Shown piece after piece: positions 3,339 through 62,729 of a stretch of DNA of 64,000 nt. Location of the stretch: positions 2,640 to 66,639 of the forward strand of contig DATLSH010000079.1 of the NCBI GenBank assembly GCA_035534235.1, written 5' to 3'. The translations under genes were made by a program, and so were the position numbers. This stretch comes from Acidimicrobiales bacterium (GTDB taxonomy: Bacteria; Actinomycetota; Acidimicrobiia; Acidimicrobiales; RAAP-2). Numbering within the stretch: position 1 is the stretch's first letter; each line of letters starts with the position of its first letter. The notes under the pieces were generated by a model, which worked only from the letters and a program-made list of their open reading frames with translations, had not been told where the DNA came from and made no database searches.

Positions 3339-3344
3339 GGCCCG

Positions 3345-6581: not shown

Positions 6582-6597
6582 ACCAACTCACTCGCCG

Positions 6598-8163: not shown

Positions 8164-8166
8164 GGG

Positions 8167-9318: not shown

Positions 9319-9322
9319 GGAA

Positions 9323-12300
9323 TCAACCATCCGGTCGGGCCCTGGGGCCACCGAGCAGGCTCACGCCGAGGGCACCCACGGCAAGTCCGGCCAGCGCCTG
9401 GGAGGTGTAGCTCCCGGTCCCGATCCACGGGCCGGCAAGGTAAGCCGGATTGATGGCAATGGTGACCCCGGCCAGCAACGCTCCCCCGAAGGCCGTCCAG
9501 GCGAGCCACGAGTGACGTGGGGAGAAGATCCTCCCCAGGACGATCAGAGGTGGTACTGCGAGCGCCACCGGTCCGGCAATGAGAAACACGGTCGCGCCCA
9601 GGAACACCGCCCAAGACAGCCCACGAAGCACCGACATGGGTGGGGCCGACCGGGCGCTGCCCTCCACTGCCTCACCCGTGTCCACCAATCCACGTGACGG
9701 CGCGGCTTCCATCGCCACGGCTTCGCCAAGATGGCGCCGCCGGAGAGTGAGCAGTGACCAGACAGCGAGCACCAGGGCCAGCACGCCTCCCACGCCGAGT
9801 ACCAGGCGGAACGGCTCCTCCGGGGTGAAGTGCATGTCGACGACCTGGGGCTGTGAGCTGGCCGGAAGGATCCAGCCCTGCTGCCAACCCTCGAGGCGGA
9901 CGGCGTGAAGTCTCCGTCCGTTCACCATCGCCATCCATCCGGAGCTGAAATTCTGATGAACGTTCACTATTGCAGCCGGTCCCGCCGATGCGGTGACGGT
10001 GCGATCTTCGGCTCCCCATCGCACAACGGTGACACTACGTGGGGGACCCAACTGTTGCAGAGGTGTCCCGATGAGGAGGAGGCTGGTGATCTTGAAGCTC
10101 CCGGAGTCATCGCCGGCGGTGAAGGTGTGCGTGCCCGGCAGCAGGGTGAGGGCTCTCCCGCCCGGGCAAGGAGTCATGGACATCGGCCTCAGTGCATAGA
10201 AGTCCCCCATGGTTCCGCTGACGGCTGTCGGGTAGTGCACGCCATCCATCGTCACGGTCGGGCCGGAACCGCAGGGCAACACGAATGGAGCCTTCAACTC
10301 TGCCTCCGAAGTGAGGGGCTGGGCTGGAGACGGGAACTCCCGGGCATAGAGGAAGGGTGAGATTCGGGGGGTGGCCTCTCCACCCACCAAGAACGTGGCC
10401 GCACGGGGCACAGTGAAGGTCCTGGACATGTTGACCTGGTCGTCGGGAGTCTTGAAGAAGGCGAGCTGGTTGGGCATGGGAGAGGTGAAGAGATAGGTGG
10501 GAGTGATGTGCGCGCTGGAACTCCCGTCATCGGGGACCTTCCAACTCTGGGCCACCGTGAGCCCGGGAATGAGAATGTGTGAGATCGCCGGTCCCGTGAC
10601 GAATTCGGTCTTGGGTTCCTTAAGGCCGACCAACGTGATCCGCAAACGGCGAGTTTCGCCCACGGGGGTGGGAACTGATTGAGGCCGGGCCTCGGATGCC
10701 AGCATGGACGTGACCTGTCCGCGATCGGTGGAGATCCTCACTTTCGTGATGTCGGTCTGCATCGGCTCGGTCGGTCCGGGCGTGATGGTGACCTCGTGAA
10801 GTCGCAATGGGTGCAGGAATCGGATCTCAATCCAAGGGCTTCGGTCGGTCGGGCTGGCTTGCCACATGGAGCCCACGGTTCCCGGCAGGAGTGCGGCGAG
10901 CGGCTGAAGCCCCGGTACACTCGTGAAGAGCGGGCCGTAGGACGATGCAGCCACCGAGCTTACGCCCGTCAGCGAGCTCACTGTCTCGTGCCGGGTGCCG
11001 GGGACGACGATCCATTGCTTGGGTTGTCCGAGAGTACCCGCCGCGGTTTCTCCGGGCGAGAGCAGATACGAGACGTTGTCATACAGGCTCGTGTAGGTAG
11101 TGGCTCGACGCTGCTGGGTATCGGAAACGACCCATGTCGTGTTCTTGAATGTCGGACCCAGCTCGTCACCGCTCAAGGTCACCGCAAGGTGCGGGAACTC
11201 CCCCGAGTCAGCCAGCGCGAGCATCGCCTGTGGGCCACCGGAGAGCCTGATGCCATCGGACAGTGGGTACGTGGTCACCAATGCCTCTCCCTCCCTGGCG
11301 GGGAGAACTCGGTAGATCTCCAACGACCGGATGGCGGAAGTGACTCCGTGCGGATCGTAGAGGCTCACGGTACCGGGTCCCGAATCCGAATGGCCGACCA
11401 CCGGCCCGAAGCGAGCCACCCGGTCCACGCCGGGCTCGTTGGCCAGCACAAGGCGGATGGCGGCCGGTGGTGGGCTGCCCGTGGTGGCCGAACTGACGTC
11501 GTTCTCCACCAACAGGTAGCGCACGCCCGCCCGGGCCAGATAGGGGGCCAACCCACTCTCGGGTTGTCCGCTGGCCAAGACCCGGTCGATGGAATCGAGG
11601 AACTGGGTGTTGCCGACGGAGCCCAGAGGCGCGATGGCGCGATTCGCCCAGGGAACGGACGCCAATGGCTGAATAGGCTGGTCGAGAGGGTTGCCCCAGC
11701 TGAGGTCGGCGAAGGCGTTCCCCGGAATGAGCAGGGTAGTGGACATCCCACCCCGGGTATTGAGCCAGTCGACGGCCTGGTGCCAATAGGCGGGGATAGC
11801 GACGAAGGACCCTTCCGGGTAGATCTGGCCAGTCAAGGCCGGTCCGGCGACCAAGGCCACCGTGGCGGCGGTGACAGCGAAGAGCCCCACCTGTAGGGGC
11901 CTCCTTCCCAGCCGTTTCGACCTGACCAGGGCGATGGCACTGTGCTCCACGGCGTGCACGAACCCCAAGACCAGCGCCAACGTGATCACCGGTTGAAATT
12001 TCGCGATGTTGCGAAATACCGCCAACGGACCGTCGAGCGCCGCGTGGACGGTTACCGCGAGCGGGCCACCGAAAGGGCCCCAGTAGCCCGAGCACACCAC
12101 ACCCACACCGAGGAGCACCGCAGTCGCCAGGAGATTCCGCTGAGGCATCTCTCGACGAGCGAGACCGTAGAGTCCGGTCGCGGCGATCAGGGCAGAGGCC
12201 ACAATGACGGCCGGATTTGACTCAATCATGAGCCCGGCCGTGGTCCAGGTCGGAGCGAGACTAAAGGACGTCCAGATCCCTGCGCCTCTCAGTACCTCGG

Positions 12301-13195
12301 CGATGCTCGATGTCGCCGTAGTTGTATTCGCCGTCTCCGTGTACGGGACCGCGTTGAACCAGTACTTCGCCTGGAACAGCAGCGGCAGGACAAACCATGC
12401 GGTGGCAAGGCCGACGGATATCAACCAGAGGACGAAGAGCCTGGCCTGTCTGCGTACGGGTCTCCTGGTGGCGAACCAGAGCACGGGCAGAACGAGAACG
12501 GCAGCGACTTCTGTCGCGTTGATGCCCCCCATGAGTAGCACGGCAAGCCCCGATCGTGCCGCACCCGCCCCAGGAGTCAACCGACCTTGCTCCACCCGGA
12601 CGAGGGGGAGGATGACCCAGGGAAGCAAGACGGCCGGAATGACGTAGGCGGTATCGTGAATCTGCACCAGGAGGAAAGGCGAGAGTGCGTAGGCCGCTCC
12701 CCCGGCCAGGCGCGACCATCGACCACCGATTCTCATGGCTTCTGCCAGGAACACTGTTCCCCACGTGGCCACGATCAGGAGCAATCCCAACCACAGCCGC
12801 TGAATGATCCATTCGGGTAGATGTGCCGACGAACCGAGCCAGTAGAAGGGGCCCAGGGGGAAAAGATAGCCATAGGCTTGATTCGGTACCGACCCGAAAT
12901 TGACGTTCGGGTCCCACAAGTGGGTTGCGTCGGACAAGAAGCGGCCAGGATCGATGCTGAGATCCAGTTTGGTATCGCGGACGATTCGGCCGGGACGCTG
13001 CAGGAACGCAACCACCACCAAACATATGGTGAGGAGAGATTCGGGAAAGCGACCCGGAAGCACCGGGATTGCGTGGCGAGCTTTCACCCGATGTTTTCCC
13101 CGACCGCTGGCGGTCGGGGAGTCCCCTTCGGACGGAGTGCCGGCAGTGAAGGTCGAGCCCATGCGCGGAGTCTCAGGAACCCGAAGGCGGCACAC
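9323..13195 (-). CDS. AftD-like GT-C membrane glycosyltransferase (alpha-(1->3)-arabinofuranosyltransferase family, DUF3367) with discoidin-like extracytoplasmic region
   Basis: 1290 aa. The N-terminal block RDTKLDLSIDPGRFLSDATHLWDPNVNFGSVPNQAYGYLFPLGPFYW matches the AftD/DUF3367 signature as I recall it. There are many TM helices at both ends and a large central soluble region. Confidence 0.7.
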   Translation of the reverse strand: MCRLRVPETPRMGSTFTAGTPSEGDSPTASGRGKHRVKARHAIPVLPGRFPESLLTICLVVVAFLQRPGRIVRDTKLDLSIDPGRFLSDATHLWDPNVNFGSVPNQAYGYLFPLGPFYWLGSSAHLPEWIIQRLWLGLLLIVATWGTVFLAEAMRIGGRWSRLAGGAAYALSPFLLVQIHDTAYVIPAVLLPWVILPLVRVEQGRLTPGAGAARSGLAVLLMGGINATEVAAVLVLPVLWFATRRPVRRQARLFVLWLISVGLATAWFVLPLLFQAKYWFNAVPYTETANTTTATSSIAEVLRGAGIWTSFSLAPTWTTAGLMIESNPAVIVASALIAATGLYGLARREMPQRNLLATAVLLGVGVVCSGYWGPFGGPLAVTVHAALDGPLAVFRNIAKFQPVITLALVLGFVHAVEHSAIALVRSKRLGRRPLQVGLFAVTAATVALVAGPALTGQIYPEGSFVAIPAYWHQAVDWLNTRGGMSTTLLIPGNAFADLSWGNPLDQPIQPLASVPWANRAIAPLGSVGNTQFLDSIDRVLASGQPESGLAPYLARAGVRYLLVENDVSSATTGSPPPAAIRLVLANEPGVDRVARFGPVVGHSDSGPGTVSLYDPHGVTSAIRSLEIYRVLPAREGEALVTTYPLSDGIRLSGGPQAMLALADSGEFPHLAVTLSGDELGPTFKNTTWVVSDTQQRRATTYTSLYDNVSYLLSPGETAAGTLGQPKQWIVVPGTRHETVSSLTGVSSVAASSYGPLFTSVPGLQPLAALLPGTVGSMWQASPTDRSPWIEIRFLHPLRLHEVTITPGPTEPMQTDITKVRISTDRGQVTSMLASEARPQSVPTPVGETRRLRITLVGLKEPKTEFVTGPAISHILIPGLTVAQSWKVPDDGSSSAHITPTYLFTSPMPNQLAFFKTPDDQVNMSRTFTVPRAATFLVGGEATPRISPFLYAREFPSPAQPLTSEAELKAPFVLPCGSGPTVTMDGVHYPTAVSGTMGDFYALRPMSMTPCPGGRALTLLPGTHTFTAGDDSGSFKITSLLLIGTPLQQLGPPRSVTVVRWGAEDRTVTASAGPAAIVNVHQNFSSGWMAMVNGRRLHAVRLEGWQQGWILPASSQPQVVDMHFTPEEPFRLVLGVGGVLALVLAVWSLLTLRRRHLGEAVAMEAAPSRGLVDTGEAVEGSARSAPPMSVLRGLSWAVFLGATVFLIAGPVALAVPPLIVLGRIFSPRHSWLAWTAFGGALLAGVTIAINPAYLAGPWIGTGSYTSQALAGLAVGALGVSLLGGPRARPDG

Positions 13196-13423
13196 GGCGA
13201 GTCACCAGCCTGCCACTGAAGGTCACCTTTGCCGCTCGGTCCGCTCTCATCGCAATGTGGAACTTAGGACGTTTCGTGCCCCCACAGCACTGGCCTCCCT
13301 ACGGGCAGGATTGATATCGTCCTTCGTTCCGCACTTTCCCGCCGACAATTCTGATTGGGGCCCCATGCACAGGTTCGGCGAATGCAGCCAGGTGGCCGAC
13401 GGTAGATTCATGGGACGACCTGC

Positions 13424-14188
13424 ATGCACGTAGGGAGCTCGCTCCATCAGCTGAGCTCCGAGTGGGACGAGCTGGCAGAACTCGACCCTATGTGGGCGAT
13501 CATCTCGGATCGCGACAAGAAGCATGCGCGTTGGGACCTTCACGAATTTCTGGAGAGCGGCCGCACCGAAGTAGCCCGAGCCCTTGAAACAATCCGGGCC
13601 ACCGGACTTTCCCTCGGCACGGGGTCGGCGCTGGATTTCGGTTGTGGACTCGGCCGCCTGACCGCGGCGCTCGGACAACACTTCGATCACGTCATGGGCC
13701 TGGATGTATCTCCGGCCATGGTCCTTTCTGCTCAACGGATCCACCATGGTGTGTCGGGGTTGGAGTTCACCGCGAACCTGCGCGCCGATTTGAACATGCT
13801 GGCGAGCGAGTCTTTCGATTTCGTCTTCACTTCGAGGGTACTGCAGCATCTTCCGGACCCGGAAATGGCGAAGGCATACATTTCCGAGTTCGTTCGTGTG
13901 TTGAAGCCGGGAGGAATCGCCCAGTTCCAGATTCCCGTCCGTACCGGCTTCCGCATGTTCGCCAACCGCCGCACTCCATATGTCGTCCTCCGGAGGCTTG
14001 GCCTCTCCCCCGCCTTCTTGTACGGAAGACTCGGACTTCATCCGATGCATCTCATTTCCGTCCCTTTCGACGAGGTCCGAGCGACCATCGTCGATGCAGG
14101 CTCCCGGATCGTGACGACGGAACCTGATGGCCATTGGTCATTGCTGGAGAACTCCGGGTTCGTGTTCACCGTGCTGAAACCAACGTGA
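13424..14188 (+). CDS. class I SAM-dependent methyltransferase
   Basis: ALDFGCGLGRLTAAL (motif I) ... FDFVFTSRVLQHLPD ... LKPGGIAQFQ. Confidence 0.8.
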   Translation: MHVGSSLHQLSSEWDELAELDPMWAIISDRDKKHARWDLHEFLESGRTEVARALETIRATGLSLGTGSALDFGCGLGRLTAALGQHFDHVMGLDVSPAMVLSAQRIHHGVSGLEFTANLRADLNMLASESFDFVFTSRVLQHLPDPEMAKAYISEFVRVLKPGGIAQFQIPVRTGFRMFANRRTPYVVLRRLGLSPAFLYGRLGLHPMHLISVPFDEVRATIVDAGSRIVTTEPDGHWSLLENSGFVFTVLKPT

Positions 14189-14197
14189 GGAGTGCAG

Positions 14198-15277
14198 TCA
14201 GGGTGCCGATACGTCGGAAACTGCAGTCCCGCTCTTGAACGAGAGCGGAGCCATCCTCTCGATCTCCGCTTCCGTGAATGTTGCTTTCACAATGGTCGCG
14301 GAGGGTACGCAGCGTTCGAGCCCGCTGATCAGGTTGTCCATCTCATGCTGGCCATAAAGCGGCAGGAGCACCAACACGTCCCCTCGCCACTGCACGATCG
14401 GCACGGTGGGTCCCAGGAGCGAGCGAGCTCTCTCGATGGTCGGGTTGATCCCCTTAGTAGACCGGACCACCACCGCATGGACGTGCTGGGTGTCTTGGTG
14501 CTCGCTCCGGATCCGGAGCAGATCGGTCACCATGGACCAGGGATCCGCCAGCGGCCGGATGCGACTCCCGCCGACCTGGACCCACCGGACCGGCACCTCC
14601 GCCACCCGGAGTCCCAGGCGTACAGCCCGGTCCAACACTTCCACGTCGAAGGCAAACCGGTCGATCGCCGAGTAATGGAAGAGAATACGAGCCACCGGAG
14701 TGCGGTACGCCTTGAACCCGCACTGGGTATCACTGAAGGGCAGGCCGATGAGCGCCCGGACAATCCCCGTGAAGGCCCGACCGCTGACCACCCGGAAGAA
14801 TGTGTCGGCTTCGGTGATCGAATCGGGAAGTGAACGTGAACCGATGGCCACGTCCGTTTCCTTGAGCGCAGTGAGGAGCAATGAGAGCTGTGACGGATGG
14901 ACTGCCATGTCGGCATCCATGAGAGCGGTCACCGCTCCGCGTGCCTGGGCCACGCCCGCCCGGATAGCGGCACCCTTGCCTCGGTTCTCGACGAGCCCGA
15001 TGACCCGGGAGCCCGGAACTGTCCTCAGGAGATTCCGGGCCCTTTCGGCCGTGTCGTCCGTGCTTCCATCATCCACCACAATGATCTCAATCGACTGTGA
15101 ACCTAGTTCCCCCCGCGCCATGGAGCTCACAAGCGTGTCCAGACCGATGGCTATCCGCTTCCCTTCGTTGAAGGCCGGAATGACGATGGTGAGCTTAACT
15201 TCATTCAGTTCTGAATCGCTCCGAAAGGCTTGATCGGCCAAACTCACACAACTCGCCCCATCTCGCCGTGTCTCCAT
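14198..15277 (-). CDS. GT2 glycosyltransferase (dolichyl/polyprenyl-phosphate hexose synthase-like) with C-terminal extension
   Basis: KLTIVIPAFNEG...IIVVDDGSTDDT...GKGAAIRAGV...MDADM. The start is set at ATG 15277 because the longer track ORF (to 15556) runs through tRNA-Pro. Confidence 0.8.
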   Translation of the reverse strand: METRRDGASCVSLADQAFRSDSELNEVKLTIVIPAFNEGKRIAIGLDTLVSSMARGELGSQSIEIIVVDDGSTDDTAERARNLLRTVPGSRVIGLVENRGKGAAIRAGVAQARGAVTALMDADMAVHPSQLSLLLTALKETDVAIGSRSLPDSITEADTFFRVVSGRAFTGIVRALIGLPFSDTQCGFKAYRTPVARILFHYSAIDRFAFDVEVLDRAVRLGLRVAEVPVRWVQVGGSRIRPLADPWSMVTDLLRIRSEHQDTQHVHAVVVRSTKGINPTIERARSLLGPTVPIVQWRGDVLVLLPLYGQHEMDNLISGLERCVPSATIVKATFTEAEIERMAPLSFKSGTAVSDVSAP

Positions 15278-15339
15278 CCCATCCACATCACCCCCATGGC
15301 CGACTATCCCCCGGCACGAACGCCGGCTACCGCATCCGG

Positions 15340-15414
15340 TCGGGCTGCCGGGATTTGAACCCGGGACCTCTTGACCCCCAGTCAAGCGCGCTAACCAAGC
15401 TGCGCCACAGCCCG
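15340..15414 (-). tRNA. tRNA-Pro (anticodon GGG)
   Basis: The reverse complement folds as a cloverleaf: acceptor CGGGCTG/CAGCCCG, D stem GCGC/GCGC, anticodon stem CTTGA/TCAAG with loop CTGGGGG, and T arm CCGGG-TTCAAAT-CCCGG. It is 75 nt, has discriminator A, and CCA is not encoded. Confidence 0.9.
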
Positions 15415-15562
15415 TGACAACTGCTTTCCGGTCAGGCACCCATATGCGACAAGTGCCGTTCCGTCCGCCCGGTTGTGCGTGCGACGCGGTCAGGAGCGAA
15501 GTTGAAAGCACAGCAGTGTACCGCGCCCGGAAGAGGGCGTCGGTGAGCACCGACAAGGCTCG

Positions 15563-16654
15563 TTATGAGCTTCGGCGAAGGCCCTGATGCAATCCGGTGA
15601 CCCTGTCGATCAGGCGCCGTTCTCCCGGATTGAAGATCTGGTAACGGCCGCCACCGCCGCGTTTAGCCTGGTACATGGCGACGTCCGCATCGTGCAAGAG
15701 GTCGTCTGAGACGACAGTGGCGCTTTCGGCCAAGGCGATTCCGATGCTGGCGCGAGCTTCCACGTTCCCTATCGACAGACTGATCGTCTTGCCAAGTGTG
15801 CTGATCACGCGGGCGGCAATTAGCTCCGCCTCGGACCTGTCCTTAAGGTCTGGGCAGAGAATGACGAACTCGTCACCGGCCAGGCGGGCCAGGGTGTCGC
15901 CCGGCCGCATGAGCCTCTTGAGGCGTCCGGTGATGGATACCAGTAGCTCATCGCCGATCCGGTGCCCGTGCGCGTCATTGATCATCTTGAAATTGTCGAG
16001 ATCGAAGTACAGTATGCAGATCAGGCCGCTCGCAAGCCGATGGCGAGCCAGCACCTTGTCCAGGGATTCGAACAGCAGTGTCCGATTGGCCAGACCGGTC
16101 AGCGGGTCGTGCAGGGCGCTCTCGCGTGATCGCTCCAACGAGCTCTGCAGGTCGGCCCGGGTGGCAGCGTTGAGCAGGTAGGCCGCTGTCACGTCGGCCA
16201 ACGTCTGGGCTGCCTTCGTGGTTGCAGGGTCCAGCAACCCGGGGGCATTGCGATACAGCGCGAGCGCACCCATCCGGTTGTCACCGGCGCGCAGCGGGAA
16301 TGCGAAGGCGGCAGCCAAGCCCTCCTCCTGCAGCCTGTGCGTGAACCTCGGGAACCGGTCATCCCGACCCAGATCCGGCACTGCGACGGCTTTGCCGGTC
16401 TGATAGGCGACAAGGCAGGGACCTTGGCCGAGATTGTTCTGCAGGCACTCGAACTTCAACGCCAGACCGCTCGATGCCGCGACGTAGCGCGGACCGCCAC
16501 CCATGCCGATCAGGGTCACCGCAGCCGCCGTGATCGGAGCTACCTCCACGATGCGTGCGACCAGGCGATCCAGGATCTCCTGGATCGGCACATCAGTCAT
16601 CATGGTGCGGGCGAACTCGCTCAGAACGTCTGCGAGTCTCTCATCACTCTCCAC
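15563..16654 (-). CDS. GAF domain diguanylate cyclase (GGDEF, AGDEF variant)
   Basis: An N-terminal GAF domain is followed by HDPLTGLANRTLL...YFDLDNFKMINDAHGHRIGDELL...RPGDTLARLAGDEFVIL, with an RxxD I-site 5 residues before AGDEF. Confidence 0.85.
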   Translation of the reverse strand: MESDERLADVLSEFARTMMTDVPIQEILDRLVARIVEVAPITAAAVTLIGMGGGPRYVAASSGLALKFECLQNNLGQGPCLVAYQTGKAVAVPDLGRDDRFPRFTHRLQEEGLAAAFAFPLRAGDNRMGALALYRNAPGLLDPATTKAAQTLADVTAAYLLNAATRADLQSSLERSRESALHDPLTGLANRTLLFESLDKVLARHRLASGLICILYFDLDNFKMINDAHGHRIGDELLVSITGRLKRLMRPGDTLARLAGDEFVILCPDLKDRSEAELIAARVISTLGKTISLSIGNVEARASIGIALAESATVVSDDLLHDADVAMYQAKRGGGGRYQIFNPGERRLIDRVTGLHQGLRRSS

Positions 16655-17059
16655 TTCGACACCCCCAACACAGCCCGGTTCAAATGCACCGCGGGGTCAG
16701 GGCGGGAGGAAACATTTTCCGCAAGACCAATTTACCCGGTAGCGGGTGGAAAGAGAAGGGGACATCTGCGATCCTGGCGAGGGGGCCGGCTGGGCTTGGA
16801 CGGGAGGGAATGGGGGCGGGGTGGCCCCGTGACTTCCTGATGGATACCCCGGCCCCGATGAAAAGGGGTCCCATCGGAGGGTGGCGCTGCGGGGGTGATT
16901 GCGGCGCTGTACCGTGATGGTGGGTTCCACCAACTGGACCCGGATGAGCGTTGGCCCGGTCCCCTCCGGCGCACTTCCTTCGTGGATGGGAGAGTGTCCG
17001 TGCACCATCGGGTCCGAAGCGAAGGCGCTGCCCGCTCGACGAGTGCACCCCGAGCCTGA

Positions 17060-54529: not shown

Positions 54530-55204
54530 TTACGGCAAGATCTCTTGGATTATGACCCGTCCGGTTATCTCATCCGGGTGGATGGCAATAATGGCGTGAC
54601 GGTCACCGCCGGCCCAGGGCTCGAGGTCGAGTGAGGCCAGTCGGAGCAATTCGTCGGGATCGTCAATGCGTCGGACCCGGCCGGTGACGAGCACACTCCA
54701 GCCCTCACTCATGGCATCGTCCACCTGATCGATCTCGAATCCGACCACGGGTTGGGCCTCAAGCTCCGCGGCGCCGATCACGGTGGTGCTGACGATGACG
54801 TCGCTCCCGGTGAATCTGAAGTTGACCGGATGTGCCTCCGGGCCTCTTTTCGACATGAAGGCAAGCCGGCCCACTCCCCCGGCACTCAAATGCGCCTCGC
54901 ATTGCGCGGGGGTGAGAGCTTCGAGCTGGGGGTGGCGCCCGGCCCTCCCCCGTCCAGGAGGCCGGTCCACACGCCCACCTTCCAAGGCATTGGGAGTCGT
55001 CTGCAGGGCCAGGGCCAGCAGGAACATCGTCCCGGCGCTCAGCCGGACCCCCGAACTCTGCTCGAAATAACCTAGGTACCCCGGGTCGATCCCGGCTCCG
55101 TGCGCGACCTCTTCAATGCTCAGGCCCAGCTCCATGCGGCGATGGGCGACTCTGCGGGACAAGTCGCCTTGGTGGGGAAGGTGGGGGTCTGCGGCTTGGG
55201 TCAT
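54530..55204 (-). CDS. XRE-type HTH fused to pyridoxamine 5'-phosphate oxidase-like (FMN/F420 split-barrel) domain
   Basis: RRMELGLSIEEVAHGAGIDPGYLGYFE is the HTH. GVGRLAFMSKRGPEAHPVNFRF...GWSVLVTGRV is the PPOX-like barrel. Confidence 0.7.
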   Translation of the reverse strand: MTQAADPHLPHQGDLSRRVAHRRMELGLSIEEVAHGAGIDPGYLGYFEQSSGVRLSAGTMFLLALALQTTPNALEGGRVDRPPGRGRAGRHPQLEALTPAQCEAHLSAGGVGRLAFMSKRGPEAHPVNFRFTGSDVIVSTTVIGAAELEAQPVVGFEIDQVDDAMSEGWSVLVTGRVRRIDDPDELLRLASLDLEPWAGGDRHAIIAIHPDEITGRVIIQEILP

Positions 55205-55269
55205 TGAGCCATTCTGATACTCCTATGGACTTGAATCCACACGGGACGCGGGAGCACCCGGCGGTCCTA

Positions 55270-55989
55270 TCAGATTGAGAACGACGTGTCCGGGTTGATC
55301 CACGGTCGACGGTCCACCGCGGCTCCGTCGTCTTGAAAGTAGTCCCAGTCAAGTTGCGGCGTTCGCCAGTCTCCATACATGCACTCAAGTTCTCGTTCGT
55401 GGTCGGCGTGCCGGAGCCAGGTCCGGCCGAGGAATTCGAAGGGCACGAGCTCTTGGTCAGGCAGTTGCGCTTCAATTTCGACGAGGTGATCCGGTGGCCA
55501 GCCGTACGCGTAATACCGCAGCATGCCGTCCACGGGCTCCATGACGAAGAAGTCGAAATTCGTGTTGTGCCGGCGGAAGGTCATCTCGGTCACTTGACCC
55601 TTGTTGTTCCGGAACTGCTGGTGTATCTGAAAACCCACTCGCCGCAGTTCGGGTGCTGCACGCAGGAGTCGCGGGAGGTCTTCTGCGAGCAGAGCGAAGT
55701 CGGCATCACGATCGTGGGCAAGCAACTTCCCCTCACGGGCCCAACCAAGCAGCATGCCCGACCAGACCCAGTACCGCCCGGCAAGCTCGGTATCGGCAAG
55801 CAGGTCGTGGAGTTCCAGAAGATCGCGCACGAGGTGGCCGACGAACAGCCGATTGCTCACGCGTTGAAGTGCTCGACCCAGCACCGGAAGCTCCAACAGG
55901 TGCCTGGCTCCCACCTTCCTTAGCCACTTCATCGGCCGTCGAAGAGAGAACACGAACGGCTTCCTCGCGTGGGTCCCTGCTACCGACAT
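55270..55989 (-). CDS. LicD family (phospho-headgroup) transferase
   Basis: YWVWSGMLLGWAREGKLLAHDRDADFAL resembles the LicD/fukutin G-x-LLG-x-R...D-x-D core. Confidence 0.65.
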   Translation of the reverse strand: MSVAGTHARKPFVFSLRRPMKWLRKVGARHLLELPVLGRALQRVSNRLFVGHLVRDLLELHDLLADTELAGRYWVWSGMLLGWAREGKLLAHDRDADFALLAEDLPRLLRAAPELRRVGFQIHQQFRNNKGQVTEMTFRRHNTNFDFFVMEPVDGMLRYYAYGWPPDHLVEIEAQLPDQELVPFEFLGRTWLRHADHERELECMYGDWRTPQLDWDYFQDDGAAVDRRPWINPDTSFSI

Positions 55990-56232
55990 GCTCCAGTTTC
56001 CCCCTGGGCCGGCCGACGATTGTCGCAGTAGCTATGCACAGCCACCCTTTGAGCTAGCTGTCGAATGTCGGACAAGTGTGGGTATTGCCGCGCGTCGCGC
56101 GTCGCAAGGAACACCGCTGCAGCCTACCCTCATGATTCAGGCCCGAGTGATGGCTCACTACCGATCCTTCCGAGAGTGTCGTGCACACAAGTCAACCGAC
56201 TGTTGCGAACCGAGCCGGCGTATGATCCTTGC

Positions 56233-56931
56233 ATGCCGAGTGCAGACCCAGAAGACTTCAGCGCGGTACCACGAAGTCACGCGTGGCATGAGGTGTGGGA
56301 CCGGCGCGATCCCGAGAAGCTCAAGTACGACGGCTACGAGACCGGATTGAACAGCGACGAGGATCTGGTGCGGTTGCGGACCGCCCAGGTGGCATTCATT
56401 TCCTCCACGCTCAACCTCGGCTCGGCTGATCATCTGCTAGATCTCGGCTGTGGGACCGGGGTGCTCACCCGACAGTTGGCACCTCTTGTGCGAAGGGTCA
56501 CGGCGGTCGATTACTCGCTTGACGCCGTCGCATTGGCGCGCGACACAATGAAATCATGCAGCACGGTCGAGCTGCACTGCTCAGACCTGGTGACGTTTGA
56601 CTTGGGCTCTGTACCGGTTACCAAGGCGGTTGCCGTTGGCTCCATGCATTACCTGGACAGTTACGCCGTGCTGCACACTCTCCTCACTAGCTTCACCCGC
56701 CGGGGGGTGCCCGTCCTTGTGATGGACCTGCCAGACCAAGCGTACGCGAGCGGGGCGAGGCGCGAGTACGACCAGTCGCGCTGGTCCCACCTGGCGGTTG
56801 ACACCGAGCGGATACGAGCCGACTTCCCGAGCAGCAGGGTGCACCGGGGGATGTTCCCTTGGTATGCCAACGACGCGATGCGCTTCTCCATCTTGATCTC
56901 GCCGAGCCCCAGCTTGACGACCAACTCTTGA
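56233..56931 (+). CDS. class I SAM-dependent methyltransferase
   Basis: LLDLGCGTGVLTRQLAPLVRRVTAVDYSLDAV (motif I plus acidic loop). The track ORF begins at 56065. ATG 56233 is chosen as the more compact start. Confidence 0.7.
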   Translation: MPSADPEDFSAVPRSHAWHEVWDRRDPEKLKYDGYETGLNSDEDLVRLRTAQVAFISSTLNLGSADHLLDLGCGTGVLTRQLAPLVRRVTAVDYSLDAVALARDTMKSCSTVELHCSDLVTFDLGSVPVTKAVAVGSMHYLDSYAVLHTLLTSFTRRGVPVLVMDLPDQAYASGARREYDQSRWSHLAVDTERIRADFPSSRVHRGMFPWYANDAMRFSILISPSPSLTTNS

Positions 56932-56974
56932 ACGCCTGATCCCACAGTGCCAGTGCACTCCGGAGCCCTCGGCC

Positions 56975-57403
56975 TCAGGAACTCGCGGCCTCCTCTTCGA
57001 TCCGCTGGCGTAGCCTGACCAGCAGCTCCGTAGTGGACACGCCAGGGGTATAAGGGACCGTCCGGTAGATCCCCATCTCCATTGCGACGGCGTAGTATTT
57101 CGCCGCCGTGTGGTCATCAAAATCGTCTCCGTGTACGACGAGGTCAATTCGGTGGGTCTTCAACCAGTCCTGATTGACCGCAAGGGGGGCATTGGCCACC
57201 ACTTCGTCGACATAGCGGCACCCGGCCACAACTGCCATCCGTTCCGTCATGGTCATGAGAGGTCGTCTCTTGTAGGACTCGACGGCATCATCGGTGTGGA
57301 TCCCAACCACCAGCGCGTCCCCGAGGGACTTCGCCTTGCGCAGAAACTCCACATGGCCAGGGTGGAAGAGATCCGCCACCATGTCAACATACACACGGGT
57401 CAT
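56975..57403 (-). CDS. HxGH cytidylyltransferase, CCT/ECT-like (predicted CTP:aminoethylphosphonate cytidylyltransferase)
   Basis: VYVDMVADLFHPGHVEFLRKAK...VVGIHTDD...CRYVDEVV...RTVPYTPGVSTTELL closely follows the phosphocholine/phosphoethanolamine cytidylyltransferase pattern. Confidence 0.8.
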   Translation of the reverse strand: MTRVYVDMVADLFHPGHVEFLRKAKSLGDALVVGIHTDDAVESYKRRPLMTMTERMAVVAGCRYVDEVVANAPLAVNQDWLKTHRIDLVVHGDDFDDHTAAKYYAVAMEMGIYRTVPYTPGVSTTELLVRLRQRIEEEAASS

Positions 57404-58428
57404 GATGCGAGAACGTGGAAGAGGTTTTCAATCACTTCTTCGTCCATGGCCGCTCCCATGTTCGCCACACGAAAGATCTCGGTGCGCAACTCGTTCTGAC
57501 CATGATAGATGACGTATCCGTACTTGAGAGCCTGGGCAAACAGTGTGTCGGGGTCACGTCCCTCAAGCCTGAACGACGTCAAGACCCATGAGCGGAGTGA
57601 TTCCTCAAGCAGTGGCTCGAAGTGACGGGATCCGGCGGTCCACACGGCACGGACCAACCTGTGATAGCGGGCCGGTCGGTCCTCCGACTCAAGGATGTCG
57701 AGGGCGACATCGAGGCCGATCATGGCCTGGATGTTTGGAGTGCTCGGGATCCCATCGGCATACGCGGGCACATTGAGCACCGGCACGGTGGGATACGAGC
57801 GCAGTTCGCGCTTCCAAAGCACTCCAGCGATTCCCGGCAGCGACTCCAGGCACTTATTGCTGTTGAAGCAGACCACATCGACACTCCGGTCGACCTCGTG
57901 CACGCCGAGCGAACTGACGGCATCGACAAAGAGTCGTACACCATGTCGCCGGCAGAGTTGCGCCACAGCCGCGAGCGGATTCAAAATACCGGTTGTCGTC
58001 TCGTGGTGGACCATCGCTACCCAGTCGGGCTCACGGGCCTCCATGTCCTCTTCCAAGGCCTTGAGGTCCAAGGGTGCCCCGACAGGAACAGAGGACGCCC
58101 AAGCCTCGGCACCTTCGAGCGTGGAAAGGGTCCGTACCATTCGTTGGCAATAGAGGCCGTTGTCCGCCACCAACACCCTGCCCCGGACGAAGGACGCAAG
58201 ACCCGCATCAACGGCGAGGCTGCCCGACCCATGCAGCAGACTGAGTGCAACTTGCCCTGAGTCGAGACCCAGATGAGACAGGATCCTCGCACGCACCCGA
58301 TCCTGGAGCTCCTCGAATTCTGGTTGGCGATGGCAAAGCTCTACATTGAACAGGTTCTCTTTGATACGAGGATCGAGATTGACCGGACCCGGATTAAAGA
58401 GGATCTGCTGGCGAGACGTCAGCGGCAT
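57400..58428 (-). CDS. phnW: class V aminotransferase, 2-aminoethylphosphonate:pyruvate transaminase-like
   Basis: ILFNPGPVNLDPRIK...HHETTTGILNP...VDAVSSLG...FNSNKCLESLPG, with the PLP Lys in the NK context. Confidence 0.75.
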   Translation of the reverse strand: MPLTSRQQILFNPGPVNLDPRIKENLFNVELCHRQPEFEELQDRVRARILSHLGLDSGQVALSLLHGSGSLAVDAGLASFVRGRVLVADNGLYCQRMVRTLSTLEGAEAWASSVPVGAPLDLKALEEDMEAREPDWVAMVHHETTTGILNPLAAVAQLCRRHGVRLFVDAVSSLGVHEVDRSVDVVCFNSNKCLESLPGIAGVLWKRELRSYPTVPVLNVPAYADGIPSTPNIQAMIGLDVALDILESEDRPARYHRLVRAVWTAGSRHFEPLLEESLRSWVLTSFRLEGRDPDTLFAQALKYGYVIYHGQNELRTEIFRVANMGAAMDEEVIENLFHVLAS

Positions 58429-58443
58429 TTCGTTCTCAGCGTT

Positions 58444-58929
58444 CTACCGCGTAGAGCGATCGTGGGTGTCGCCCAATGCGTCCCTGATGCGGTCACTGTT
58501 TGCCTCGACTGTCAAGCTCACCCGGGGCGGTCTTCCGTCCCGGGTGATCTTCACCACTTCCGTCACGCCGGGATAGGACTCCTCCAGCACGGCGCACGGT
58601 TGGCCACCCACCGACTCATGACACCCGTTGTCGAGAACGTAGTGAAAGAGGTTGGTGAGTGCGCTCTCTCGCACGGTATGCGTAGTGCCCAGACTCATCA
58701 GCAAGGACGCATCGCCATTGATTACCACGACGTCACACGAAGCATTGAGCGCCATTCCTAAACCGATAGCAGGAGCCAGGCCCATGCTGCCTTGCATGTA
58801 GAACACATTGTAACCACCGCCGGCTTCAGCGAACACCGCTCGACTGATGTATCCGGTGGACGCGACGTAGACGGCGTCATGCCCGTGCCGACCCAGGATC
58901 TCTCGAATCGCCTGGTCCCTGCCCTTCAT
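58444..58929 (-). CDS. phosphonopyruvate/sulfopyruvate decarboxylase, beta (TPP-binding) subunit
   Basis: GSMGLAPAIGLGMAL...VVVINGDASLLMSLGT...VLDNGCHES is the TPP GDG-x-N motif region. Confidence 0.8.
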   Translation of the reverse strand: MKGRDQAIREILGRHGHDAVYVASTGYISRAVFAEAGGGYNVFYMQGSMGLAPAIGLGMALNASCDVVVINGDASLLMSLGTTHTVRESALTNLFHYVLDNGCHESVGGQPCAVLEESYPGVTEVVKITRDGRPPRVSLTVEANSDRIRDALGDTHDRSTR

Positions 58930-58959
58930 GGGCGACCTGGCGAGAGAGCGCGTCTTGGT

Positions 58960-59373
58960 TCACCCCTCATTGTTCTCCCCGGCAACCAGAATGTAGTTGT
59001 GCCAACCCAACAACTCGAGCAATGAGCGGTCGATCTCACCCATGACTCGGTGCTGAGGGAGGGTGTGACGGTGCCCCACCACCATGAGCAAGTCAATTCC
59101 GTACGGGATACACAGGGTGGCCAATGGGTTGACGGTATGTCCCAATCCCGCGTTCTGAAGGTACACACACGGTCTTGCCCCGGCTAACGAAGCTCCGGCA
59201 GCGATGCCCATCGCTTCCGCCTCCCACGTCGCCGTGATATGTCGGTCTGCCGGCAGCCCGGCCAAATCAGAAATGAACTCTTTCAGACCGCTGTCGGGCA
59301 CGCCCGTGAAGAAGTCATACCCGTCGGCCAAGAGGCTGTCCAGCAGCCCCTTATCGGACGTAACGATCCTCAT
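58960..59373 (-). CDS. phosphonopyruvate/sulfopyruvate decarboxylase, alpha subunit
   Basis: DFFTGVPDSGLKEF...EAEAMGIAAGASLAGARPCVYLQNAGLG is the TPP_enzyme_N-type pyrimidine-binding region. It overlaps the pepM-like stop by 23 nt. Confidence 0.8.
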   Translation of the reverse strand: MRIVTSDKGLLDSLLADGYDFFTGVPDSGLKEFISDLAGLPADRHITATWEAEAMGIAAGASLAGARPCVYLQNAGLGHTVNPLATLCIPYGIDLLMVVGHRHTLPQHRVMGEIDRSLLELLGWHNYILVAGENNEG

Positions 59374-60235
59374 TCGCCTTCAATTCGTCCACGTAAATGA
59401 TTCGGAAGATCTCATCCATACTGACAACATTGCTGTTCCCATCGGCCAGCCGCTTCTTTTCCATCAGCATGCCAAACGTGTCTTGAAGGGCCTTGGCGAT
59501 AGCTCGGATCCCGTAATTCGCGAAAATGATAAGTTTGAATCCGGCGCCGTCCAGGGCCTCGTAACTGACGGTGTTGTACGTCGTCGGAACGCACACCAAC
59601 GGTGCCGTCTCGCTCCGGTACCATTTCTCAGCAAACTCCAGAACGGGTCCGGGATCCCCTTCCTTGTGATGAATCAGGATCCCTTCTGCTCCTTCGGCTG
59701 CATACTCCCGAGCCCGGTCGAGTGCAACCTTTAGGCCTAAGCCCTTGATAAGCGCCTCGGTACGAGCAATAACCGCGAACTGAGTATCTGTCCTCTGCTC
59801 CAATGCTGCTCGTAGCTTGCCGCAGAACGTGCTCGAGTTCTCAATCTCCTCTTGCATGCCGGCATAGAAGGAACATCTTTTCGGGAAGACGTTGTCTTCA
59901 ATGCACATCCCACTCCCACCCGCCTTCTCAAATTCCCTGACGAGCCGGATCGTGTTGATTGCGTTACCTCCGCCGGCGTTACCGTCAACAAGAACCGGGA
60001 TCTTTACCCGGTCGACGATTTTGGAGACGACGTCTACGTAGTCCTGAGTGCCCAGGATGTCGGCGTCCGGAAGCCGTGCGGCCGCATGGACCTCGAAGCT
60101 GGAAACCCAGAGCCCATCTGCTCCGGCCTCCTCCGCAATTTTGGCTCCCATCGCGTTGTGAACGCCCATCAGAACAGCGGCATGATCTCCATGGAGAAGT
60201 TGAAGAACTGTCTTGTCAGGGAAGATCATTTCCAC
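59351..60235 (-). CDS. ICL/PEP-mutase superfamily enzyme, probable divergent phosphoenolpyruvate mutase
   Basis: GVHNAMGAKIAEEAGADGLWVSS...LPDADIL...PVLVDGNAGGGNAIN...GMCIEDNVFPKRCSF. It is the first gene of the operon with decarboxylase and aminotransferase. The canonical EDKxxxxxNS signature is not conserved. Confidence 0.65.
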   Translation of the reverse strand: MEMIFPDKTVLQLLHGDHAAVLMGVHNAMGAKIAEEAGADGLWVSSFEVHAAARLPDADILGTQDYVDVVSKIVDRVKIPVLVDGNAGGGNAINTIRLVREFEKAGGSGMCIEDNVFPKRCSFYAGMQEEIENSSTFCGKLRAALEQRTDTQFAVIARTEALIKGLGLKVALDRAREYAAEGAEGILIHHKEGDPGPVLEFAEKWYRSETAPLVCVPTTYNTVSYEALDGAGFKLIIFANYGIRAIAKALQDTFGMLMEKKRLADGNSNVVSMDEIFRIIYVDELKANEDRYVR

Positions 60236-60510
60236 AAGCTACCAAGATCGTTGAGGGAATGTAGGAGCCGTGATTGCCTCCCTTTGCACGTGCGACACCC
60301 GTAGTGCGTCCCCGCTCACCGACAATTCGCGGCGAGAACGCCCAGAAGTTCAGGCAGGATTCGCCGGAAGCGGGCCGACTCGGTTGAGGAGATCCCGATG
60401 ATTTCGCCGTCGACACCGATCAGGTACTGGGGTACCAGAACCTACTGAGGGGTACCTCGCACACCACGCGCCGACTCTTCCAGTCTCTGAACATTGGTAA
60501 CATTCCTCGA

Positions 60511-60945
60511 ATGCCCGACCCCCCAGAAAGGCAATCGGCACAGGCTCCCGCTCAGTCCAACTCCGATATTGTCCGTGAAATCACCGGAGCTCTGGCCCGA
60601 GGCGACTTGCTGGTGGTGATGAGCAAGCTGTCAAAGGACATCCGGTGGGCCGTGAATGCAGCCGATCGCGAAAGTGCACCCTGGTTCCGGGTCTACGAGG
60701 GCCGCAAGAACTTGCCGGACTTCTTTTCCGAGCTGGCCAAAGTCGAGTTCTCGGATTTCACCCTCAAGGCAGTAGCCAGTGATGGTGATGTCGTGATCAC
60801 GTGGCTCCACGTGGCCTTCACCGGCCCATCAGGTCGCTCGGTCGACATGGAAGAGACCCAGATTTGGCGATTCGAAAATGGCAAGGTGCGTTCCGTCGAC
60901 ACGTTGCTCGACACCGCTGCCGTGGCCGCCGTATTCGGGCCGTAG
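60511..60945 (+). CDS. NTF2-like / SnoaL-like small protein
   Basis: 144 aa with an alpha+beta cone-type pattern (...ITWLHVAFTGPSGRSVDMEETQIWRFENGKVRSV...). Confidence 0.55.
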   Translation: MPDPPERQSAQAPAQSNSDIVREITGALARGDLLVVMSKLSKDIRWAVNAADRESAPWFRVYEGRKNLPDFFSELAKVEFSDFTLKAVASDGDVVITWLHVAFTGPSGRSVDMEETQIWRFENGKVRSVDTLLDTAAVAAVFGP

Positions 60946-60959: not shown

Positions 60960-62729
60960 TCAACCCTTCGGGAATGCGGCGCCGTATTCATTGAGGAGAT
61001 GCTCGGTGAGCAGCTCGGACGCCAGTATGCGGCCGTGCCACTCGAACAATGAGTGTTCCAGGCCAGGGATCATGACCATCCGGAATTGCGGTTGCCGCTG
61101 CAGCCGGCGCATGGTCCGTCCTTCACCCCGTTTGAGAAGATGAGTTTCGTTCTCGCCGGCGATCACGAATATGTTGACACCGGCATCAATCACCTTGGAC
61201 AGGGTGCGCGCCGGCGGCGACTCCACGGCTATCCGGTTGATGATCCACCAGGCGGGACCGGGCAGGCCTTCGACAAAGGGGCCCAGCTTGTCGTGAGCCG
61301 GCAGTGCTCGAGCCCAGCGCTTCGTGGCCCCAGAGGCCTGCCGACGGCTATCGAGCGTTCCGCTCTGAAGCTCGGGAGGTGCCTTCGAACTCACCTCCGG
61401 TGGTTTGAACGTGAGGATCGGATTCACCACCAGCAGGCCGCGCACATGGCCGGCAATAGCTCCCTCAACAGCATGGTAGGCACCTGAGCAGAGCCCGACG
61501 AGGATGGCGTTTGACGGATCGTCGGGCGATGCGGCGTGGAGTACGTCGAGGATGTCGTCCAGCGCCTCGGGTGAATAGACAACGTGCGGGACCTGATCAA
61601 CTCGCATCGGACTGTCACCCACGCCGACCAGGTCGAAGCGGATGACACGGAAACCGGCTTCGGCCCAACGGCGAGCGAGCGTCACCCACAGGCGCGCCGG
61701 TCCGACGTGATCGATCTCTCCCGCGTTGAAGCAGAAGATCGTGGGCAATGCACCAGGGACCCCCAGCGCGTCCCGGCTCGCCTCATCGGCACTCAGAGTC
61801 ACAAGTCGTTGATCGGCGTCATGGCGGGTAGTCATGATTCCGAACAGGTTTCTACGGCCGAGCACAACCGGGCGTTCGTCTATGGACACACCGTCTGTGG
61901 TGGTGCCGACAACGGCCAGGTTTCGCCCTACGGTATCGCTTTCGATCTCCACCATTGGATCTGCAGCGGGTACAGTAGCCAGCCAATCTGCAATGGTCGC
62001 AATGGTCGCTTCGGGCATGATCGTCGCGTGAGGAAGAACATCGACAAGATCTTCCTGCCCGGCAATTGGCAAGCGCAACACATTTGGCATGTCGAGACGC
62101 TCGTTCATGCGCCGGTCGCCCTTGCGACTGGACCGCATGAGCAAAAGGACTCTGTCGGCGAGTGGTCCCTCCTGGTTGGCGATTGCCACGGCTGACAGGT
62201 CCGCCACCGTCTCCTTGTCGTAGACGAGCCCGGGTGTCTCAATTGCGCCATCGTCATGGGACTTGGTACCCAGAGCTACTGACCACAGCGCGCTCTGCCC
62301 CCGGAGGAACGCCCGCCCGGAAGCACAGGGGTCCCACAAGACAAGGTCGTCAATGACGGCGGGCCCTGATCCGAACGTCTCGGCACTGAGGGTTGCACCG
62401 ACACGCATGCCGACCACACCCAGTCGCCCGAGCCCCAGCCCCCGCATGAACTGCACCGCATGGCGAATGCTCGCCATCCACGCAGCGGTTCGCTCGGGAT
62501 CCTCGTGTCGGCCGGCCGAGTCGCCGGTTCCGTCGTAATCAAATCGCAAGGCCACAAGACCTGACTCGGCCAGTCGATCTGCCAAGAGCCTGAAGGCGAG
62601 ATGTGCACTCACCGCCTCAATACCCATAGTCGGGCAGAGCACCACGCCTCCACGGGCACTCCCGTCTTCCGGAACGTGCAGCCAACCGAACAGCGGGCGA
62701 TCCTCGGGGCCGAACCACAGCGACTTCAC
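60960..62729 (-). CDS. tandem alpha/beta-hydrolase-fold protein
   Basis: Domain 1 reads LFGWLHVPEDGSARGGVVLCPT...LRFDYDGTGDSAG with elbow GMRVG (no Ser). Domain 2 reads RFDLVGVGDSP...VGLCSGA (Cys at the nucleophile position). Confidence 0.7.
   Translation of the reverse strand: MKSLWFGPEDRPLFGWLHVPEDGSARGGVVLCPTMGIEAVSAHLAFRLLADRLAESGLVALRFDYDGTGDSAGRHEDPERTAAWMASIRHAVQFMRGLGLGRLGVVGMRVGATLSAETFGSGPAVIDDLVLWDPCASGRAFLRGQSALWSVALGTKSHDDGAIETPGLVYDKETVADLSAVAIANQEGPLADRVLLLMRSSRKGDRRMNERLDMPNVLRLPIAGQEDLVDVLPHATIMPEATIATIADWLATVPAADPMVEIESDTVGRNLAVVGTTTDGVSIDERPVVLGRRNLFGIMTTRHDADQRLVTLSADEASRDALGVPGALPTIFCFNAGEIDHVGPARLWVTLARRWAEAGFRVIRFDLVGVGDSPMRVDQVPHVVYSPEALDDILDVLHAASPDDPSNAILVGLCSGAYHAVEGAIAGHVRGLLVVNPILTFKPPEVSSKAPPELQSGTLDSRRQASGATKRWARALPAHDKLGPFVEGLPGPAWWIINRIAVESPPARTLSKVIDAGVNIFVIAGENETHLLKRGEGRTMRRLQRQPQFRMVMIPGLEHSLFEWHGRILASELLTEHLLNEYGAAFPKG

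Follow-up and report, generated by a model that had tools for sequence, protein, structure and literature searches.

Phosphoenolpyruvate mutase (PepM, also called Ppm or AepX; EC 5.4.2.9) forms the carbon–phosphorus bond of natural phosphonates by converting phosphoenolpyruvate (PEP) to phosphonopyruvate, and its gene is the marker behind estimates of phosphonate biosynthesis in genomes, oceans and strain collections. Here we analyse a pepM-like gene in a stretch of 64,000 nucleotides from an Acidimicrobiales bacterium (assembly GCA_035534235.1, contig DATLSH010000079.1, positions 2,640 to 66,639 of the forward strand), referred to below as the window. The encoded protein is a PepM by fold, phylogenetic neighbourhood and gene context, yet it fails the textbook motif EDKX5NS at a position regarded as catalytic, reading EDNX5CS (EDN..CS below) in its place. 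Judged from sequence comparison and gene neighbourhood, it is very probably a functional PEP mutase from a divergent EDNxFPKRCS sub-lineage, feeding the decoration of the cell surface with 2-aminoethylphosphonate (AEP).

The perfect EDKX5NS motif has served as a filter in Rice 2019 (PMC6697681), in Li and Horsman 2022 (PMC8942020) and in an actinomycete screen of December 2025. Since the first two inventories required it, the EDN..CS clade was excluded from both by construction. The same two studies define phosphonate clusters by associations like those of the EDN..CS genes described below, and Rice et al. (PMC6697681) list PF01467 as a common Ppm fusion partner as well as 22 motif-less PF13714 proteins fused to other domains, which were left without follow-up. 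A marine survey curated its sequences on conserved catalytic residues and found pepM in just 90% of aepY genomes. According to a review (PMC7916636), Asn122 (Mytilus numbering, used here unless stated) is a phosphoryl-binding residue and the main difference between PepM and the hydrolase, phosphonopyruvate hydrolase (PPH). Members of the EDN..CS group are labelled phosphoenolpyruvate phosphomutase at JGI and 'isocitrate lyase/PEP mutase family protein' at NCBI. In the literature on the EDN..CS motif, on non-canonical PepM and on pepM in Acidimicrobiia we found no description of the variant, subscription journals being largely outside the search.

The gating loop and the metal-site block

The pepM-like gene and its two variant motifs are located as follows.

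59351..60235, minus strand: pepM-like gene, 294 aa from a GTG start, first gene of a minus-strand cassette
59870..59899, minus strand: gating-loop motif EDNVFPKRCS, equivalent to Mytilus E114-S123, with K116N, Arg at 121 and N122C
59966..59989, minus strand: metal-site block VDGNAGGG, equivalent to Mytilus L84-G91, with D85 kept and D87 replaced by Asn

The true start is likely the ATG at 60229, giving 292 aa, because the homologues are 292 aa long and align from residue 3. An earlier reading of the DNA alone (the original prediction) had spelled the loop E-D-N-V-F-P-K-R-C-S, with the first Lys changed to Asn and the Asn to Cys, and the metal block VDGNAGGG; translation of 59870-59899 and of 59966-59989 on the minus strand gives exactly these residues. 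In HMMER alignments to solved structures the loop pairs with EDKLFPKTNS in Mytilus PepM, with EDKRFPKVNS in Streptomyces platensis PepM and with EDKTFPKDTS in PPH, and the metal block pairs with DADTGYG and DCDTGYG, TGYG reading AGGG in the PepM-like protein. The diagnostic EDKX5NS motif is absent, Lys116 and Asn122 being replaced and the Glu, the Asp, the inner Lys120 and Ser123 kept, and no second, canonical copy of the loop was found elsewhere in the protein.

The HMMER alignments to structures are in register, and therefore the loop is not mis-registered, an error that the original prediction had itself named as fatal. An alignment made by MAFFT with the PepM and PPH references, E. coli PrpB and the petal death protein (PDP) shows an identical loop register, as does the comparison of an AlphaFold model by Foldseek, and mis-registration was rejected on the agreement of all three. 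The loop Cys is homologous in the MAFFT alignment to the catalytic Cys of PrpB (AKRCGH) and PDP (PKKCGH), so that the likeness of PKRC to the K(K/R)CGH loop of the lyases, pointed out at the start, holds as homology of aligned positions.

Throughout the lineage the substitutions are fixed. Among the 120 nearest database proteins (70-100% identity, mostly metagenomic, the named ones coming from Acidimicrobiales or Actinomycetota metagenome-assembled genomes, MAGs), all except one carry EDN....KRC[ST], and 119 likewise have Asn at the D87 position. In an alignment of 32 sequences N115, K119, R120, C121, S122, F123 and Y124 (the protein's own numbering) are invariant, and N86, at the D87 position, is conserved at 90% or more. 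The replacement of D87 by Asn is specific to the Acidimicrobiales lineage of the PepM-like protein plus a few others. A sequencing error or a pseudogene was rejected, as the variant residues are conserved across the 120 homologues.

Placement in the PEP mutase family

The PepM-like protein matches PF13714 (E=9e-43) and has the alpha/beta-barrel fold of the ICL/PEPM superfamily (ICL, isocitrate lyase) according to Pfam, AlphaFold2 and Foldseek. Its best NCBIfam model is TIGR02320 PEP_mutase, at 243 bits and under the equivalog cut-off of 319.55. The scores for the related families leave it outside each of them: 174 bits on TIGR02321 PPH (cut-off 374.4), 125 on TIGR02317 PrpB (354.4), 101 on TIGR02319, the carboxy-PEP (carboxyvinyl-carboxyphosphonate) phosphorylmutase (420), and 20 on TIGR01346 ICL (276). 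A sequence search of the PDB orders the structures in the same way, with PepM (5UNC and 1M1B) at 224 and 181 bits, PPH at 171 and the best lyase-family protein at 94. Identity to 5UNC is about 45-47% over 274 residues when counted from this alignment, and 40% over the Foldseek alignment. The AlphaFold2 model, built from 32 homologues, has a mean predicted local distance difference test score (pLDDT) of 86.5 and a predicted template-modelling score (pTM) of 0.86, and consists of alternating strand-helix units followed by C-terminal helices. When it is compared with the PDB by Foldseek, PepM 5UNC comes first (template-modelling, or TM, score 0.88), followed by Mytilus PepM, PPH and then the lyases, with PepM TM scores of 0.86-0.88. 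By its sequence, then, the protein falls within the PepM/PPH radiation, away from the lyases.

Comparison of 18 EDN..CS cluster representatives with 97 canonical ones shows how much of the active site is retained. The EDN..CS proteins keep W44, S46 (17 of 18), D58, D85, E114, D115 and P119, and also K120, S123, R159, E161, H190 (16 of 18), N239 and R243. The substrate- and phosphoryl-binding residues in this set (S46, K120, S123, R159 and H190) are all present in the PepM-like protein and in 16-18 of the 18 representatives. At the Mg2+ site, where D85 binds directly and D58, D87 and E114 through water, the PepM-like protein has D58, D85 and E114, with Asn in place of D87. Residues specific to the EDN..CS group are N116, R121, C122, Y125 (18 of 18), F48 and N88. 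Arg or Lys at 121 accompanies the lack of Lys116 (29/39 vs 22/98; Fisher p=3e-8, uncorrected for shared ancestry), a pattern in the sequences that suggests a positive charge moved within the loop.

These placements bear directly on whether the protein could be a member of the isocitrate lyase family acting on carboxylates only, such as a methylisocitrate lyase, an oxaloacetate decarboxylase or a similar lyase or decarboxylase, that happens to lie beside phosphonate genes. The K-R-C triplet and the non-Lys residue after E-D do resemble the EDQ...K[RK]CGH loop, and the NCBI name of the relatives commits to nothing narrower than the joint family. However, Ser-Phe follows the Cys instead of Gly-His, the PrpB score is 125 bits against a cut-off of 354, lyases in the PDB reach at most 94 bits, the PepM-specific S123, H190 and N239 are retained, and linkage to phosphonopyruvate decarboxylase (Ppd) is conserved across phyla, gene fusions included. 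We consider such a lyase highly improbable.

Several observations weigh against assignment as a functional mutase. The PepM-like protein and its relatives score under the TIGR02320 cut-off (221-290 vs 319.55 bits), and one EDN..CS representative, P0133, is matched slightly better by the PPH model than by PEP_mutase. A residue other than Asn at 122 could alter the outcome of the reaction, and the D87N replacement takes a carboxylate out of the Mg2+-water shell. As to the cut-off, P0170, a canonical EDK..NS representative, reaches 267 bits and fails it too, from which we conclude that the threshold is conservative and under-calls PepM generally, not just the EDN..CS clade.

The two replaced residues also raise the idea of a catalytically dead or structural paralogue that relies on a canonical PepM elsewhere in the genome, N122 and D87 both being considered important. 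Against this, strong purifying conservation covers the whole active site, the variant residues included, in the 120 homologues (70-100% identity); the gene stands first in the operon, with overlapping reading frames; and the same loop occurs in fusions to Ppd and to PntC; this is the least probable of the readings that we weighed.

A probable phosphonate cassette downstream of the gene

The genes that follow, together with two further genes of the cluster, are listed here in the order in which they are met downstream of the pepM-like gene.

58960..59373, minus strand: phosphonopyruvate decarboxylase alpha-like subunit (thiamine diphosphate, ThDP, PYR domain, 137 aa); PF02776; TIGR03297 Ppyr-DeCO2ase positions 1-122, 100 bits
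58444..58929, minus strand: phosphonopyruvate decarboxylase beta-like subunit (ThDP PP domain, 161 aa); PF02775; TIGR03297 positions 172-287, 101 bits; GDAS...LDN
57400..58428, minus strand: AEP transaminase-like class-V aminotransferase (342 aa); PF00266; best match TIGR03301 PhnW-AepZ
56975..57403, minus strand: PF01467 cytidylyltransferase (142 aa); E=9e-20; HPGH and GVSTT motifs; syntenic in related loci
56065..56931, plus strand: methyltransferase dependent on S-adenosylmethionine (SAM); PF13649, PF08241; inside the cluster on the opposite strand
55270..55989, minus strand: LicD-like phosphotransferase (239 aa); PF04991 LicD, E=1.6e-5; a homologue of 49% identity lies beside the cassette of locus L010

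The proposal that the gene heads an operon with a decarboxylase and an AEP-type transaminase is borne out by this arrangement: the pepM-like stop is overlapped by 23 nt by the start of the alpha-like Ppd (the TPP_enzyme_N reading frame), and TPP_enzyme_C, Aminotran_5 and cytidylyltransferase genes follow, the cytidylyltransferase start overlapping the aepT stop by 4 nt. Both Ppd halves have phosphonopyruvate decarboxylase as their best NCBIfam match with sulfopyruvate decarboxylase behind, the alpha-like subunit scoring 100 bits on TIGR03297 vs 70 bits for sulfopyruvate decarboxylase alpha. The aminotransferase scores 187 bits on TIGR03301, under the cut-off of 360.8. Cofactor motifs are kept in the downstream enzymes, namely GDAS..LDN and the activating Glu for ThDP, SNK with the lysine for pyridoxal phosphate, and HPGH with GVSTT. 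The cytidylyltransferase would convert AEP to its cytidine monophosphate derivative, CMP-AEP, and the LicD-like protein would take the phosphonyl head group from its CMP-activated donor and pass it to an acceptor. The methyltransferase at 56065..56931 is an uncertain member of the pathway.

Taken together, the cassette suggests the following route. The PepM-like protein would make phosphonopyruvate from PEP, a thermodynamically unfavourable step that the split ThDP decarboxylase, being co-translated, would pull onward to phosphonoacetaldehyde; this the class-V aminotransferase would turn into AEP. The PF01467 cytidylyltransferase would then make CMP-AEP, and the LicD-like transferase would put AEP, possibly after methylation, on a glycan or lipid of the cell surface as the presumed final acceptor. 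Within the active site, Cys121 (own numbering) may replace Asn122 as hydrogen-bond donor near the migrating phosphoryl group, Arg120 may compensate for the lost charge of Lys116, and Asn86 may still hold the water that D87 keeps on Mg2+ (canonical roles as in PMC7916636).

The same context bears on the most serious rival that the sequences offer, a PalA-like phosphonopyruvate hydrolase that destroys phosphonopyruvate. At the very loop position that is Cys here PPH has Thr, and this non-Asn residue is its chief difference from PepM; for some EDN..CS relatives the PPH model gives almost as high a score, or a higher one; and a relative in locus L009 is followed by a PalB-type aminotransferase, a pairing also known from the degradation of phosphonoalanine. 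The PepM-like protein itself, however, reaches 243 bits on the PepM model vs 174 on that of PPH. Moreover, the next enzyme of the operon needs phosphonopyruvate, for which the cassette holds no other source, so a hydrolase would be futile, and the fusions to Ppd and PntC make no sense with a catabolic hydrolase. We regard a hydrolase as very unlikely; both it and the lyase were rejected on HMM (hidden Markov model) scores and gene context.

The G+C content is 0.56-0.62 over window positions 55000-60500, and 56-60% across the cassette as such, vs 0.67-0.70 in the adjacent housekeeping region at 41-53 kb, which holds genes for 2-oxoacid dehydrogenase E1/E2, NAD kinase, RecN, CTP synthase and a XerD-like recombinase. 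The lower value suggests that the cassette was horizontally acquired or is part of a variable surface-glycan island. Scans for promoter and terminator consensus sequences gave matches at chance level only.

Some other features of the window were seen in passing. A SnoaL-like gene of 144 aa (60511-60945, plus strand) is divergent from the cassette, and just past it lies a gene for a 589-aa protein (60960-62729, minus strand) in which residues 46-139 and 347-437 each match the alpha/beta-hydrolase fold weakly; the fold appears to be duplicated in tandem. A tRNA gene at 15340-15414 on the minus strand (Rfam RF00005, 65.9 bits) lies within a long mechanically called open reading frame (ORF) at 14198-15556 on the same strand, and this ORF is therefore at least partly spurious.

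The same cassette and loop in other genomes

A scan of genome contigs returned seven loci. The five-gene core (pepM-like, ppdA, ppdB, aepT and cytidylyltransferase) is kept in L001, L004, L005 and L008, which are Acidimicrobiales or Actinomycetota loci, at 57-85% protein identity, the aminotransferase gene being syntenic in these four. L002, L003 and L010 likewise retain the first three of these genes. The reading frames of the pepM-like gene and the split Ppd overlap in all related Acidimicrobiales loci, and the alpha-like Ppd is syntenic in L001-L005, L008, L010 and L012-L014. Coupling to an enzyme that consumes phosphonopyruvate is thus found as a split Ppd in seven Acidimicrobiales and three distant loci, and as a Ppd fusion.

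For a wider view we took the 150 cluster representatives (50% identity) nearest to the PepM-like protein, a sample biased towards the query. The loop reads EDK..NS in 97 of them, EDN..CS in 23-26 depending on the method, and EDN..NS in 11, with other residues in a few; Lys116 is absent in about 47. The EDN..CS loop spans several phyla, occurring in Polyangiaceae, Tepidisphaerales, a bacterium of the candidate phyla radiation (CPR) and an unclassified contig. Some of these proteins carry a C-terminal PntC-like NTP_transf_3 fusion (P0123, P0126, P0128, P0131 and those of the Polyangiaceae loci L006 and L007), and in P0132 the loop is found in a fusion to the N-terminal domain of Ppd (TPP_enzyme_N).

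The three distant loci have a stand-alone EDN..CS gene directly followed by a split Ppd and then by different genes.

L012, JGI metagenome contig: methyltransferase
L013, Candidatus Peribacteraceae MAG: aldehyde dehydrogenase
L014, groundwater contig: methyltransferase, AEP transaminase and an NTP_transf_3-phosphodiesterase fusion

The last of these is a 24-kb contig from the 0.1 um fraction of Hainich groundwater (ENA ERZ1292616; positions 1-16933), and it also encodes DnaB, an intein-containing ribonucleotide reductase, dCMP deaminase and uracil-DNA glycosylase. Such a gene set is often seen in phages or ultra-small cells. If the contig is from a phage, it would be a case of phage-encoded AEP biosynthesis using a non-canonical mutase. 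A scan of IMG/VR with the pattern EDNx[FY]PK[RK] returned canonical EDK..NS PepMs only. These canonical PepMs on viral contigs have as partners a PF01467 cytidylyltransferase, located directly upstream, Ppd, AEP transaminase (AEPT) and LicD, as in the cassette of the window. In the plasmid collection all matches were below 41% identity.

Other loci vary the theme. In the Polyangiaceae MAGs the EDN..CS PepM-NTP_transf_3 fusions lie in L006 at 9986-13412 and in L007 at 5151-6869, the former adjoined by a second NTP_transf_3 gene and a CDP-alcohol phosphatidyltransferase; in both, the flanks gave no detectable Ppd. These two could represent a phosphonolipid pathway that couples the mutase step otherwise than by decarboxylation. 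In an Actinomycetes MAG (L010, 10001-13183 of CAWGDC010000002.1) the cytidylyltransferase, inverted, and the LicD homologue are kept, and an AEP transaminase is absent within 10 kb of the cassette, so that the phosphonate head group made by this variant may differ. In L009, from Tepidisphaerales, a PalB-type class-I/II aminotransferase follows the relative of the PepM-like gene, a pairing that is ambiguous between synthesis and degradation of phosphonoalanine. SAM-dependent methyltransferases stand beside EDN..CS cassettes in unrelated lineages (L003 at 9336-9986, L012 at 7115-7927 and 9760-10425, and L014 at 10105-10785), of which the L003 enzyme alone has detectable similarity to that of the window (26% identity). 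The recurrence of a methyltransferase with a LicD-family transferase raises the possibility of an N-methylated, choline-like AEP head group.

Origin of the loop and the question of altered chemistry

In a neighbour-joining tree rooted on PrpB and PDP, the EDN..KRCS sequences form a basal grade and the EDK..NS sequences are derived. Sequences without Lys116 form no supported clade, the best-matching clade being found in 2/100 replicates, and the window lineage is monophyletic in 100/100. When the motif columns were masked, the first-branching lineage was one without Lys116 in 59/100 bootstrap replicates and one with Cys throughout in 36/100. Retention of the lyase-like K-R-C loop from an ancestor is thus a hypothesis drawn from the sequences, and not a robust one. 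A more far-reaching version would see EDN..KRCS as a surviving intermediate between C-C lyase and C-P mutase, in which the ancestral general-acid Cys is directly catalytic together with the co-conserved Tyr125 and Arg121, for example through proton transfer to the enolate or transient S-phosphorylation; this seems unlikely to us. If it were true, the group would reach the C-P bond by a different mechanism and would not simply carry a silent substitution of Asn122.

More generally, the protein might be a mutase with altered chemistry, in which the Cys takes part directly as general acid/base or S-phospho carrier, or which acts on an analogue of PEP such as arsenoenolpyruvate, the product being a 3-substituted pyruvate accepted by the Ppd-like decarboxylase. 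The Cys aligns with the catalytic Cys of PrpB and PDP as its homologue, sits in an identical K-R-C triplet and is invariant in the lineage; Tyr125 is co-conserved in 18/18 EDN..CS representatives; and Streptomyces has an arsonopyruvate pathway that runs parallel to phosphonate biosynthesis (PMC4943196, PMC12159101). However, close relatives with unchanged gene contexts have either Asn or Cys, which speaks against a new catalytic role that is indispensable, and the cytidylyltransferase and LicD partners suit a phosphonate head group. BsnN/SLI_1097, the proposed arsenic mutase, carries the annotation of a phosphoglycerate-mutase-type enzyme and needs as partner an arsenoenolpyruvate synthase resembling 5-enolpyruvylshikimate-3-phosphate (EPSP) synthase, its clusters also having arsenic resistance genes (PMC4943196, PMC12159101), and no AroA-like or ars gene was found among the annotated ORFs at about 41-64 kb of the window. 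An arsenic analogue pathway was rejected, since by published description the arsenic mutase is another kind of enzyme and the partner genes are not among the annotated neighbours. Altered chemistry as a whole appears quite unlikely.

Position 122 alternates between Asn and Cys in neighbouring branches of the EDN group, and Ser is also found there (P0178). This suggests that the three residues are functionally interchangeable against the EDN background, and fits equivalence better than new chemistry. The original prediction had left the choice between a PepM lineage invisible to motif-based mining and an enzyme with different chemistry; family placement, retained residues, synteny and fusions lead us to prefer the former, and the use of motif filters in mining is confirmed by the published inventories.

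Implications for phosphonate genome mining

Decoration of the surface with AEP is an ordinary pathway, and the interest of the locus lies in a systematic blind spot of mining and in a natural test of the need for Asn122. If the EDN..CS enzymes are active, phosphonate producers are undercounted and some 'orphan' ppd genes, of the kind to which the 90% figure of the marine survey points, would be explained. Asn122 would then be inessential for formation of the C-P bond, which bears on the mechanism and on the origin of the mutase from lyases. A relaxed motif, ED[KNSQH]x4Kx[NCS]S, combined with adjacency to Ppd would recover the clade.

Comparison with known systems

The closest described enzymes are the PepMs of known structure (1PYM and 1M1B from Mytilus, 5UNC from Streptomyces platensis), which are its best match by sequence and HMM and with which the PepM-like protein shares the fold (TM 0.88) and the pepM-ppd-aepT order of the cassette with cytidylyltransferase and LicD partners. 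It differs from them in having EDNX5CS and not EDKX5NS, in the fixed Arg121 and Tyr125, and in the metal block, where D87 is Asn and TGYG is AGGG. PPH (PalA, 2DUA) belongs to the same PepM/PPH sub-branch and also lacks Asn at the N122 position, but it keeps Lys116, has Thr122 within EDKTFPKDTS and is found in a catabolic palB-palA arrangement, whereas the neighbours of the PepM-like gene are Ppd and AEPT.

The lyases of the superfamily (2-methylisocitrate lyase, isocitrate lyase and PDP) share the K-R-C triplet and, next to E-D, have a residue other than Lys (Gln in lyases, Asn here), and the DGDTGGG block of PDP resembles the DG.xGGG of the PepM-like protein. They are set apart by Gly-His in place of Ser-Phe, by an overall identity of about 25%, and by the PepM-type phosphoryl-binding residues and phosphonate-type context on the side of the PepM-like protein. 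The arsonopyruvate mutase of the bisenarsan type, BsnN/SLI_1097, is separated by its published descriptions.

At the level of the pathway, the nearest counterparts are the Ppm-PntC and CyTase-Ppm clusters (PMC6697681, PMC8942020), which likewise combine Ppm, Ppd, AEPT, nucleotidyl activation and surface transfer, and relatives of the PepM-like protein are fused to NTP_transf_3 just as described for Ppm. The window differs from these clusters in that its Ppd consists of two short subunits and its nucleotidyltransferase is a separate PF01467 protein.

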